This document shows, one piece after another, positions 35,556 through 50,295 of a stretch of DNA of 64,000 nucleotides. The DNA comes from Oscillatoriales cyanobacterium (GTDB lineage: Bacteria > Cyanobacteriota > Cyanobacteriia > Cyanobacteriales > Microcoleaceae), in contig RDXX01000023.1 in the NCBI GenBank assembly GCA_004292955.1, forward strand, positions 7,673-71,672, read 5' to 3'. A program made the translations under genes and the position numbers. Position 1 is the first letter of the stretch. Each line of letters opens with the position of its first letter. The notes beneath the pieces are model-generated. The model saw only the letters and a program-made list of their open reading frames with translations, was not told where the DNA came from and ran no database searches.

Positions 35556-36995
35556 ATGAATTCAGTTTGGCAACAGTTAACTCTGGCAAATTTGCCGCTC
35601 TCTCAGTGGCAAAGTGGCAGTTATTTATTGAATTTGGCGATCGGCAATGCGCGCAGTTGGCGGCAGAGTAGCTGGCTGATGCAGTGGGCCGAGCCCCTGG
35701 GTTTTGTTTTGCTCGCCTTGACGTTCGGTATGGGCCCATTTGTAAACAACGCCCTGGTGGGTGTGTTGATGGCTGCTGCCGCTGCGTTTTGGGTGCTGCT
35801 GACTGTTTCGGACGATCGCGCGATCGCCCTCACACCCATTCACTTGCTGGTACTTTTGTACTGGGGCATTGCTACCGTCGCCACAGCAATGTCGCCGGTG
35901 AAAGCCGCCGCTTTTACAGGCTGGACGAAGCTAACGCTGTATTTGCTATTTTTTGCACTGATGGCGCGGATATTGCGAGATTCCCGTTTGCGATCGTGGT
36001 TAATAGCCGTATATCTTAATGTTGCTTTAATTGTCAGTTTCTACGGCGTGCGGCAGTGGATTGATAAAGTGCCACCATTAGCTACTTGGAACGATCCGAC
36101 TTCTACTCAAGCCGATGTCACCCGAGTTTACAGTTTTTTGGGCAATCCCAACTTGCTCGGTTCCTATTTGCTACCAGCCATTGCCTTGAGCGCCGCCGCA
36201 CTTTTTGTGTGGCAAGGATGGGGAACCAAACTTTTAGCGTTGACGATGCTGGTAGTGAATTGCGCGTGTTTGCGCTACACCGACAGTCGCGGTGCTTGGA
36301 TCGGTTTTGTGGCTGTGCTGGTGGTGTTTTTAGTCCTGCTTTGGTACTGGTACAGCCCTTTAATGCCTAGGTTCTGGCGCACTTGGGCGCTGCCGTTAGG
36401 GTTAGGAGGTTTGGCTGGAGCGTTAATTTTGGGAGTAGCTTTGGTGCCAGCCTTGCGCGATCGAGTTTCGAGTATGTTTGTCGGCCGCGGCGACAGCAGC
36501 AACAATTTTCGGATTAATGTTTGGACGGCGGTGATTGACATGATTCGCGATCGGCCAATCCTCGGCATTGGGCCCGGAAATACTGCTTTTAATAAAGTTT
36601 ATCCGCTTTATATGAAGCCAAAATTCACTGCTTTGAGCGCTTATTCTGTGCTGCTAGAAATTGCCGTCGAAACTGGTTTTATCGGTTTAATGTGTTTCCT
36701 GTGGCTGATGACTGTTACCGTCAATCAAGGTTTGTTGCAGATCAAAAAATTGCGCGACGCACAATTTAACAGCTCTCATTTAGAGGAAGAATCCCCAAAT
36801 CTCAAATCAAATCAGGGGTTTTGGTTGATTGGGGCGATCGCCACTTTAACTGGTATGATGGCTCACGGTTTTGTCGATACAGTTTGGTATCGGCCGGAAG
36901 TTAATATGCTTTGGTGGTTGATGGTGGCGATTATTGCTAGTTTTTATAGCAATTCTCAGCAGCAGCAAGATTCAGGTTTGACACAGGGCGAGTAG
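35556..36995 (+). CDS. ictB: IctB-family membrane protein (O-antigen ligase-like)
   Basis: RVYSFLGNPNLLGSYL, DSSNNFRINVW, GIGPGNTAF, HGFVDTVWYRP. Confidence 0.93.
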   Translation: MNSVWQQLTLANLPLSQWQSGSYLLNLAIGNARSWRQSSWLMQWAEPLGFVLLALTFGMGPFVNNALVGVLMAAAAAFWVLLTVSDDRAIALTPIHLLVLLYWGIATVATAMSPVKAAAFTGWTKLTLYLLFFALMARILRDSRLRSWLIAVYLNVALIVSFYGVRQWIDKVPPLATWNDPTSTQADVTRVYSFLGNPNLLGSYLLPAIALSAAALFVWQGWGTKLLALTMLVVNCACLRYTDSRGAWIGFVAVLVVFLVLLWYWYSPLMPRFWRTWALPLGLGGLAGALILGVALVPALRDRVSSMFVGRGDSSNNFRINVWTAVIDMIRDRPILGIGPGNTAFNKVYPLYMKPKFTALSAYSVLLEIAVETGFIGLMCFLWLMTVTVNQGLLQIKKLRDAQFNSSHLEEESPNLKSNQGFWLIGAIATLTGMMAHGFVDTVWYRPEVNMLWWLMVAIIASFYSNSQQQQDSGLTQGE

Positions 36996-37153
36996 AATAG
37001 CGATCGGAAAAATCAGGTACCCCTGGGTAATCACCGAAAAGCTTGCGGTTCAAAAATCGAACTTATAAAAGTAATGGCGGGGTTTTATCCCCGCCCGGTA
37101 AGGATTCCAGTTCCCAAAAAGCAGACAGCTTTCCTAAAGCTGCAAGCGATGAT

Positions 37154-37550
37154 TTGACACTCTCCGACCTGAAGGTGCGGAGATTCTTAAGAAGCTTTGA
37201 CACTCTTAAATACGCTGTCAAGACACATCTAGACGTTCAAAACAACTACCTTTTGGTGTTGCAATTACGCTTACTTTTTTGATTTATGCTTTCGTTCGCA
37301 CTTCTCAACACTAAGCCAGTTCGGTACGCTCCCCATCCTGCGCTGCTTGGCTGTGCCATAGTCTTTCTCAAACAAAGATGTTGAGGGTGTCTTACTGCCC
37401 GGAATTTCACCGTTCTAGGAATGGTTCTACGCGTAGTTGATACGCCTACTTGTTCCACATTGTTAAAAACTATAACACAGATTACTGGCAACCTAAAGGT
37501 TGCAACTGCGTTTCATCCCCGGCTTGAAAGACCGGGGTTCTCACGCGACG
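37154..37550 (-). mobile_element. Non-autonomous IS200/IS605-family element (left- and right-end hairpins, no transposase or TnpB ORF)
   Basis: Minus-strand left hairpin GAACCCCGGTCTTTCAAGCCGGGGATGAAAC and right end AAGAATCTCCGCACCTTCAGGTCGGAGAGTGTCAA; left boundary approximate. Confidence 0.75.
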
Positions 37551-37579
37551 CGCTATAGCCTTTCTCAAATAAGTGAGGT

Positions 37580-37742
37580 ATGCCCTATGCCCTATGCCCT
37601 ATGCCCTATGCCCTATGCCCTATGCCCTATGCCCTATGCCCTATGAGCACCGCACTGTTACTGAAAAAGGCTATAGTCATCAGTCATTTCCAATTCTTTA
37701 ATCTCAAATCTCAAATCTCAAATCTCAAATCTCAAATCTCAA
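37580..37742. repeat. Heptamer arrays (ATGCCCT)n at 37580-37625 and (AATCTCA)n at about 37700-37742
   Basis: Seen directly. Confidence 0.9.
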
Positions 37743-37851
37743 ATGGTATAAGGTGCACAGCGTGCACCTACATAACTACTACTACATACTACATACCTGT
37801 TAGTTGTAAAGTGCTAGTGGCGAACTCTACAAAAATTATCGAAAATAACTC

Positions 37852-38082
37852 TTATTCTTCGCTATCCGAAGGCATTGCAAATCTCGGACACGCATAATAT
37901 CCATCTCTATCTTTGCACCGCCGCCACGTCGTAGACTGATTCAATTGGAACAGCGTTGCGACTGATTCATTCACTGTGGGTGTAACAGTTGCAGGAGTTG
38001 GCATTGCTCTTGAGGCTTGACTTAGCTCCATTACCGTTATAATTGCCAGCATGGCTGATGAAAGCAAAACTGTGCGTTTCAT
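37852..38082 (-). CDS. Small putatively secreted peptide (76 aa, two Cys)
   Basis: Sec-type leader MKRTVLLSSAMLAIITVMELSQASRA; ATG overlaps the stop of the TPR gene. Confidence 0.7.
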   Translation of the reverse strand: MKRTVLLSSAMLAIITVMELSQASRAMPTPATVTPTVNESVATLFQLNQSTTWRRCKDRDGYYACPRFAMPSDSEE

Positions 38083-49789: not shown

Positions 49790-50295
49790 TAGACAGAATG
49801 GTAAACTTTTACACAAACACTCATAGTGTGCCATGTTCAAACCCTGCGCGATTTGCGAAAAAGCTTGGACTTTCAGTATCAAGTCACTACTTACTTATGC
49901 AAAAACCACGCAACTATAAGTAGAAGATTTAAATGTTGATCGGATGCCAAAAAATCACAAACTAGCGCAGGCAATAGCTGACTGTGGATTCTCTGAATTC
50001 AAGCGTCACCTAGAATATAAGGCGAAAAAGTTTGGTTGTGAAATAATCATTGCTGACCGCTGGTTTCCGCCCTTGCAAAACAATAGTCAAGCTGTGGGCA
50101 TATCCAAGATATGCCACTGAAAGAAAGAACCTTCAACTGCGAAAGTTGTGGTAATTCGATGGACAGAGACTTGAAGGCAGCGATTAATTTATCACGCTTG
50201 GCTAAAGCGCGAAAGCTTACTGAGGGATAACCGCTCCCATGCTCCCTGTGAAGTAAGAAGCAAATGTCTAGACTTGTCTAGTATTTGTATAGCAG
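49790..50295 (+). pseudogene. tnpB: Internally deleted IS607/IS605-type element with frameshifted tnpB 3' fragment and right end
   Basis: Manual translation over two frameshifts: DFQYQVTTYLCKNH / VEDLNV...CGFSEFKRHLEYKA...DRWFP / CGH...FNCESCG..MDRDLKAAINL, followed by TGTCTAGACTTGTCTAG...ATAGCAG; left boundary approximate. Confidence 0.85.

Follow-up and report, generated by a model that had tools for sequence, protein, structure and literature searches.

Does an ORF-less, IS605-type element in a cyanobacterial genome carry a guide RNA for a TnpB nuclease that is encoded elsewhere? The question is raised by a locus within a 64,000-nucleotide stretch of an Oscillatoriales genome (hereafter the window), where a first-pass annotation, made from the sequence alone, had placed an element of approximately 400 bp at 37130-37550 and had proposed that it supplies a scaffold plus guide in trans to TnpB. 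Stand-alone, mobilised ωRNAs acting in trans and ωRNA-encoding PATEs have already been described (Altae-Tran et al. 2021, as summarised in PMC10691335; Meers et al. 2023, bioRxiv 10.1101/2023.03.14.532601), and the literature describes the biological role of stand-alone ωRNAs as unknown.

Fifteen copies of the element in 9 genomes align exactly from CTAT/AGCGCG (the slash marks the boundary between target and element) to GAGTGTCAA, with flanks that are unrelated and a base after TCAA that varies. Metagenome and metatranscriptome contigs leave the window sequence exactly between 37154 and 37153 and between 37558 and 37559, and among the environmental contigs, of DNA as well as of RNA, the element also occurs between a second pair of flanks. 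An empty site, which the first-pass annotation had proposed to look for, was found by searching 30 congeners with the region and its flanks: the closest congener, G001, joins both flanks directly, its uninterrupted site reading ...CTGATGACTAT^CATCGCTTGCAGC.... On the strength of the empty site, the ends of the 15 copies and the points of contig divergence, we place the element at 37554-37154, with CTAT as target and TCAA as right end. All the main features noted in the first pass are present in the sequence, and the limits are corrected accordingly. The mini-element thus comprises 401 nt of the minus strand, from A37554 to A37154, without an ORF (Table 1), and we assign it to the PATE type, that of non-autonomous IS200/IS605-family elements that encode no protein.

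Table 1. Anatomy of the mini-element and its flanks (window coordinates; LE, left end).
Feature	Position	Strand	Remarks
Inferred target/TAM, 5'-CTAT-3'	37555..37558	-	Directly 5' of the left end; invariant in 15 copies, upstream flanks otherwise unrelated
Left end (LE), start AGCGCGTCGCG	37482..37554	-	Conserved in 15 copies; 91% identity over 88 nt to the C60 LE beside tnpA
LE hairpin CCCCGG (37537-37532)/CCGGGG (37522-37517)	37537-37517	-	
Second LE hairpin GCAACC/GGTTGC	37503-37488	-	
Extended -10 promoter box TGTTATAGT	37469..37477	-	Position kept across copies
5' RNA domain, ~150 nt	37299..37455	-	Long-range helices, hairpin CGG-UGAAAUU-CCG, variable hairpin; covariation
3' RNA domain, ωRNA-like scaffold	37154..37298	-	Helices Pa, Pb, Pc and right-end hairpin; tnpB 3'-end homology
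Right-end hairpin TCTCCG (37183-37178)/CGGAGA (37166-37161)	37183-37161	-	Followed by GTGTCAA
Right-end terminus TCAA	37157-37154	-	
Putative guide from flank, ATCATCGCTTGCAGCT	37138..37153	-	Directly 3' of TCAA; flank different in every copy
Two terminator-like hairpins in host flank	37076..37143	-	37143-37125 with T-run, and 37095-37076; terminator scan

Relative to G001, the window carries two insertions, the mini-element and a small MITE (window 37556-37673) that has inverted ends TAGCCTTTYTCA, a TA target duplication and internal (ATGCCCT)10 heptamers. The mini-element is inserted exactly within the TA duplication of the MITE; CTAT as target rests on this reading of the duplication and then fits the G001 empty site. 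The 29-nt end of the MITE occurs approximately 90 times across the genome. Adjoining the MITE is a (TCTCAAA)n heptamer array (window 37700-37745), followed by a hairpin, GGTGCACAGCGTGCACC, at approximately 37750-37770.

The mini-element is mobile within the genus, and its transposition in the complete genome G024, which has 6 identical copies at 6 loci, was recent. No simple empty site was present in PacBio reads of a related mat organism, because the flank of this relative diverges at 36963. In PacBio run X21, the copy of a related organism lacks 66 nt (window 37456-37521) that include the -10 box; this copy is a naturally occurring variant without the promoter or else a fusion to a different left end.

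Both ends of the element have imperfect subterminal hairpins that are kept in the 15 copies, and there are no terminal inverted repeats; insertion is 3' of the conserved CTAT and does not duplicate the target. The extended -10-like box that had been noticed on the minus strand just inside the left end is indeed there; a sigma-70 -35/-10 scan returned no match and no -35 box, and the promoter is called solely from the conserved extended -10 box. The interior of approximately 300 nt is non-coding, and neither TnpA nor TnpB is encoded, in line with the first pass: blastx against all genome ORFs of at least 100 amino acids gave nothing below E = 0.65, which leaves no coding similarity and no coding remnant, and the members of the family differ by indels without a common reading frame. 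No Rfam 15 family, including HEARO, IS605-orfB and RAGATH-18, matched at its gathering threshold across the whole window, and a search at E <= 10 on 36900-37900 gave only noise (E > 1). The proposed guide, ATCATCGCTTGCAGCTTTAG from 37153 downward, had been read correctly. The terminator-like hairpins beyond the right end are host DNA, since their sequence is also present at the G001 empty site, and could terminate the primary transcript.

Comparison of the interior with the host's own genome, another check that had been suggested, identified 19 ORF-less relatives, the same copies being recovered by blastn, a nhmmer profile and a covariance model (the latter two at E <= 1e-16). None of the 19 is directly downstream of a tnpB ORF, and an ωRNA that neither overlaps tnpB nor lies just 3' of it defines the stand-alone subclass. 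These copies are only 67-77% identical to the window element, yet they share its layout: left end, a TGnTAnnAT box approximately 10 nt before a conserved GAGUAAGAA, the 5' and then the 3' domain, and finally a right-end hairpin that precedes G(U/A)UCAA. The box is at the same position in approximately 13 of the 19 copies, and copies from congeners have it there as well (TGTTATAAT), as do those from another family of the order (TGGTATAAT).

This one RNA family is joined to at least 4 left-end types. Type a (CTAT/AGCGCG) belongs to the window and C6 copies and also to the C60 tnpA/tnpB element; type b (TTGAC/C..CGAG) is shared with the left ends of the tnpB-bearing C55 and C78; type c (TTCAT/AAAAAT..ACGGGATGCGGG) is found as well at the left ends of the tnpB-bearing elements at C74, C75, C82 and C24; and type d is a GGGTCTGAAGCCCCGTCC hairpin. 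Two copies, C30:146255-146548 and one on C130, seemed to have no left end and were considered as fixed, genus-wide orthologous host genes. This was rejected, as congeners have empty sites; the hairpin upstream of both copies is the fourth left-end type. At C6:16123-16850 (L002), 2 mini-elements stand in tandem, the lineage-a copy sitting in the promoter region of the second. A hairpin with conserved neighbours, GCGGTTTCAACCGCC, occurs at more than 100 dispersed genomic sites, for example at window 50733 and 50884 (C86:58405 and 58556), and is also the second hairpin of type b left ends.

An ORF-less element of this kind might be an inert IS605 deletion derivative, moved by TnpA via the 2 ends that it has kept and with an interior devoid of function. 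Apart from the missing ORF, this would fit an interior that is roughly colinear with the tnpB 3' region and a single-sequence fold that is not unusually stable (z = -0.9), a value that is uninformative. Comparison between copies speaks against it. For the 5' half, RNAalifold on 18 own-genome copies gives the long-range helices CAUC:GAUG, UACGU:GCGUA and ACAU-CCU:AGG-AUGU plus a CGG/CCG hairpin; 92.6% of cells are paired, as against 39-47% for slid partners, and 15 of 28 pairs have compensatory changes, with 0 of 500 shuffles reaching the observed values. The 3' half, for which the alignment included 3 tnpB-linked sequences, has 4 helices (Pa, Pb, Pc and the right-end hairpin), with 90.5% of cells paired (39-51% for slid partners) and compensatory changes in 17 of 26 pairs. 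Covariation, the first-pass annotation's own touchstone for the interior, is strong in both halves, and both RNA domains are under structural selection. The individual stems named in the first pass fared unevenly: the GGUGAAAUUCC hairpin (CGG/CCG) is conserved and covaries, the AGCCA/TGGCT stem is broken in other copies and finds no support, and the TTGACA/TGTCAA stem is not among the covarying helices, the conserved ones in that region being Pb and Pc. There is a faint hint of a pseudoknot in a three-base pairing of loop to flank (CUU:AAG), for which the G004 copy has a double compensatory change (CAA:UUG), the one instance seen. Given that 67-77% identical copies retain their helices by compensatory changes, that the promoter box keeps its position, that the same architecture recurs across several cyanobacterial families and that RNA is detected, we consider an inert derivative very unlikely.

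The conserved pairing could instead reflect folding of the single-stranded DNA transposition intermediate that TnpA sees, and not of an RNA. IS200/IS605 transposition uses ssDNA hairpins at both ends, and covariation in the right-end hairpin cannot tell DNA from RNA folding. However, recognition by TnpA, as known, needs the subterminal hairpins only and not approximately 250 nt of internal structure. Moreover, pairs of the G-U type, which are strand-specific, are frequent in the helices (e.g., UG:11, UG:9) and fit an RNA of the minus strand, and a promoter and transcripts are present. We give this explanation hardly any credence.

RNA from the element is present in environmental metatranscriptomes. 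Eight freshwater metatranscriptomes carry the element at 100% identity; the depth of the RNA contig is 19-50 over the element versus 0-7 over the neighbouring gene, and a DNA run that matches the window has a flat depth. Transcripts were expected from the first pass to cross the right end, and metatranscriptome contigs do so, one of them (X9) ending with Illumina adapter at 37143, 11 nt past TCAA (assembled contigs, unstranded). A putative RNA 5' end recurs at 37446, where an X6 contig ends in adapter with zero coverage upstream in that run and where an X24 contig ends as well. The adapter orientations fit minus-strand RNA, if the libraries were dUTP-stranded. Coverage by several RNA contigs extends over the left end, upstream of the promoter, and some contigs include flank sequence; read-through, DNA carry-over and a second genomic copy probably contribute to these contigs.

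By nhmmer, the last approximately 136 nt of the element (positions 167-302) resemble the 3' end of tnpB together with the right end at C55 (E = 1e-15) and C78 (E = 2e-14), and also at C112 (2 copies), C40, C66 and C75. The 3' domain and right end are thus homologues of a tnpB 3' end, the genes concerned coming from a TnpB clade that has no zinc finger. The proteins of this clade have OrfB_IS605 and TNB domains and the RuvC motifs IDxG, ETEESYTSK and INADxNGAxNI, and none of the matching TnpB proteins has a CxxC (C4) zinc finger. A PDB sequence search with the cognate TnpB gave no match.

A tnpA/tnpB-bearing parent with matching ends had also been sought, and the matches are divided between 2 contigs: the C60 left end is the one that resembles that of the mini-element, and the tnpB 3' end and right end of C78 match its scaffold. 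C60 has, in this order, the left end, an intact-looking tnpA on the opposite strand (C60:661-1113, a 151-aa Y1_Tnp protein whose frame looks intact) and the N-terminal part of tnpB, which is broken off at residue 190 by an inserted type b right end. C78 (60083-60931) has the matching C-terminal 255 residues, with a type b left end ahead of them. C60 (1-1200) and C78 appear to be the halves of one lineage-a IS605, which we infer to have been split by a nested lineage-b IS at approximately codon 190. The Y1 (HUH) TnpA of C60, with its matching left end, is a candidate to move the mini-element in trans. An intact lineage-a tnpB of 416 aa (OrfB_IS605, TNB) is present in congeners, for example in G011 (C167:658-1908), with the same CTAT/AGCGCG left end; the intact relatives in the own genome, at C55 and C74/C75, apparently have other targets, TTGAC and TTCAT.

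The IS605-family load of the genome is very high, with 94 TNB-domain (tnpB-type) matches, approximately 116 TnpB ORF fragments and 13 Y1 TnpA matches in 7.3 Mb, and many members lie at contig ends. The window itself has a short tnpB TNB-domain remnant with an in-frame TAG at 50081-50191 (+). Two zinc-finger-less tnpB genes, C112:15244-16344(-) and C112:115548-116651(+), have in common an extra base at GCGAAAAACTTT that leads to a stop before RuvC-III, and in the approximately 200 nt behind these stops the 2 copies differ only at synonymous positions of the shifted frame. This frameshift could be a case of recoding or of slippage during transcription, or its product could be a truncated protein like TldR.

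In the part of the mini-element that lies 5' of the shared 136 nt, colinearity with the coding sequence of the parent is only weak. We considered and rejected the possibility that the 5' domain is hidden in tnpB coding sequence. The covariance model of this domain, CM R1, which matches the window element at C86:44971-45127, finds nothing at E <= 1 in the tnpB loci of the genome, and with filters off nothing above 10.4 bits (noise) in 6 cognate tnpB loci. On this evidence only the ORF-less elements have the 5' domain, and since these 150 nt were found in no tnpB gene, the RNA is more than a cut-down version of a tnpB-encoded ωRNA. The domain may stabilise the RNA, or it may replace the part that overlaps tnpB coding sequence in full elements.

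Such an RNA could also have a function of its own that is independent of TnpB, either controlling excision and integration by TnpA or acting as a regulatory or structural RNA that benefits element or host, the TnpB-like 3' part being an evolutionary leftover fused to the right end. A private, covarying 150-nt domain that occurs in no tested tnpB locus and a conserved promoter of its own are what one would expect of such an RNA, and the distribution of the family bears directly on this. By blastn, the scaffold is present in 22 of the 24 congeners searched. The 5'-domain model has matches in 48 of 401 sampled cyanobacterial genomes and 18 of 155 genera; the positive genomes fall into several families of the same order, except for one that belongs to a different order. 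Copies in another family of the order have the full layout and lie between ordinary genes, for example those for thioredoxin and an aminotransferase. A 21-base motif of the 5' domain is found at more than 117 loci in named genomes, from genera that include Microcoleus, Tychonema, Okeania, Lyngbya, Scytonema, Tolypothrix, Nostoc, Dolichospermum, Anabaena and Calothrix.

Of the same 401 genomes, 65 have the zinc-finger-less TnpB clade (E <= 1e-60): 34 have both RNA and TnpB, 14 the RNA only, 31 TnpB only and 322 neither. As raw counts that ignore shared ancestry, the clade is found in 34 of 48 RNA-positive versus 31 of 353 RNA-negative genomes; the TnpB searches scored 4 candidates per genome, and absences are therefore soft. 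The association between RNA and clade is clear, with real exceptions. G310 has 4 identical RNA copies in a genome without the cognate clade, and G024, with its 6 identical mini-elements, has no lineage-a TnpB, the best match being 50% identical. The RNA is thus present, and sometimes multiplies, without its cognate clade (G024, G310; 14 of 48 genomes), as a TnpB-independent role would allow. Against such a role, Pb and Pc are conserved and covary jointly with the tnpB-linked sequences, as expected if an ωRNA function has been retained; the end of the RNA invariably coincides with the transposon boundary, like that of guide RNAs; and the co-occurrence with the TnpB clade is well above background, while the absences are of the soft kind just described. 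We regard a TnpB-independent role as unlikely and keep it as the main rival because the lineage-a tnpB appears to be split in the own genome, because G024 has no lineage-a TnpB and because the 5' domain is unexplained.

The guides themselves offer a further view of function. A search of the whole genome for the 16-nt flank of each of the 19 copies, allowing up to 2 mismatches, gave chance-level matches only, none of them TAM-adjacent. Guides without a second target fit homing and not gene regulation, and we rejected the idea that they act as trans-regulators of host genes, as none of the 19 copies has a second TAM-adjacent target. A domesticated guide RNA of the TldR type was likewise rejected, there being no TAM-adjacent second targets and the loci being insertion polymorphisms.

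The explanation that we favour, and consider probable, is that the mini-element encodes a stand-alone ωRNA and depends on two enzymes in trans: TnpA would move the element, and TnpB would use the ωRNA to cut the vacated site again. RNA polymerase would start at the extended -10 box and read across the right end into the flank, and the transcript would be trimmed to the scaffold plus approximately 11-16 nt of flank. A TnpB encoded elsewhere would bind the 3' domain. Once a Y1 TnpA (e.g., from C60) had excised the mini-element, the TnpB-RNA complex would cut the vacated site, consisting of CTAT and the flank sequence listed as guide in Table 1, and repair from the sister chromosome would restore the mini-element. 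An element working in this way would keep just what exploiting both enzymes in trans requires. The original proposal of a scaffold plus guide acting in trans has therefore gained support, with RNA contigs across the right end, covariation in the interior and a tnpB with matching ends all found; use by TnpB is what we infer from them. Several observations count against this reading. In the own genome the tnpB of the same lineage is apparently interrupted, and the intact relatives seem to have other targets; G024 has no lineage-a TnpB, and at E <= 1e-60 the clade is missing from 14 of 48 RNA-positive genomes; tnpB-linked ωRNAs do not have the 5' domain; the observed 3' end leaves a guide of 11 nt only; the RNA contigs, which are unstranded and in several cases extend over the left end, may owe something to read-through or DNA carry-over; and the z-score of the single-sequence fold is unremarkable.

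More tentatively, and with considerable doubt on our part, the family might be an independent lineage of guide-RNA hyperparasites and more than a set of deletion products, that is, a promoter-driven, two-domain RNA gene that has been shuffled onto at least 4 IS605 left-end types and to which the 5' domain adds a function missing from tnpB-encoded ωRNAs. If so, this domain might out-compete resident ωRNAs, recruit more than one TnpB lineage or act without TnpB, and the element could persist and multiply even in a genome without a cognate nuclease. If, on the other hand, the RNA is an ordinary trans-ωRNA, the outcome is a solid annotation of an abundant and currently unannotated cyanobacterial repeat and RNA family. 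The family is well suited to studying the role of stand-alone ωRNAs, as it is large and diversified and is expressed in the environment, its TnpA and TnpB partners can be identified, and its structure, promoter, target and ends are clearly defined. It would allow testing of whether guide-only elements depend on resident nucleases for their retention, and of how the 5' domain affects competition with the guide RNAs that the nucleases themselves encode. The scaffold, together with the zinc-finger-less TnpB clade, may interest developers of compact genome editors.

How does the mini-element compare with known systems? A similarity of its RNA to Cas12k tracrRNA was considered and set aside, as the two are not known to have motifs in common. 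With TldR guide RNAs (bioRxiv 10.1101/2023.11.30.569447) it shares a derivation from TnpB-ωRNA and the potential to serve a protein encoded elsewhere; unlike these, the 19 guides are local flank without a second TAM-adjacent genomic target, and the loci are not fixed host genes but mobile insertions, for which congeners have empty sites. Like the canonical, tnpB-encoded ωRNA of ISDra2 (PMC10097598), the RNA has a 3' scaffold that ends at the transposon boundary beside a stem-loop, several helices, a possible short pseudoknot and homology to the tnpB 3' end. In contrast to the canonical ωRNA, it overlaps no tnpB ORF, has an extra 5' domain, has by inference its own promoter and is not processed from tnpB mRNA, and its partner clade of TnpB is without the C4 zinc finger.

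The closest likeness is to the stand-alone ωRNAs and PATEs. Like them, the mini-element is protein-less, has IS605-type ends, a scaffold that abuts the right end and a guide taken from the flank, and is mobilised in genomes that have effector-bearing elements, the proposed user being a nuclease encoded elsewhere. It differs from them in having a dedicated, conserved extended -10 promoter and a private 5' domain of approximately 150 nt that is missing from tnpB-encoded versions, in the number of ORF-less copies (19), which far exceeds that of intact cognate tnpB genes in the genome, and in the joining of at least 4 left-end types to one RNA family. No Rfam family or paper matched the RNA family. 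The concept of a stand-alone guide RNA is therefore already known, whereas the family found here in cyanobacteria appears to be undescribed, as do the dedicated promoter and the private, covarying 5' domain that it has, the predominance of guide-only elements over intact cognate nucleases and the presence of one RNA family on several left-end types.
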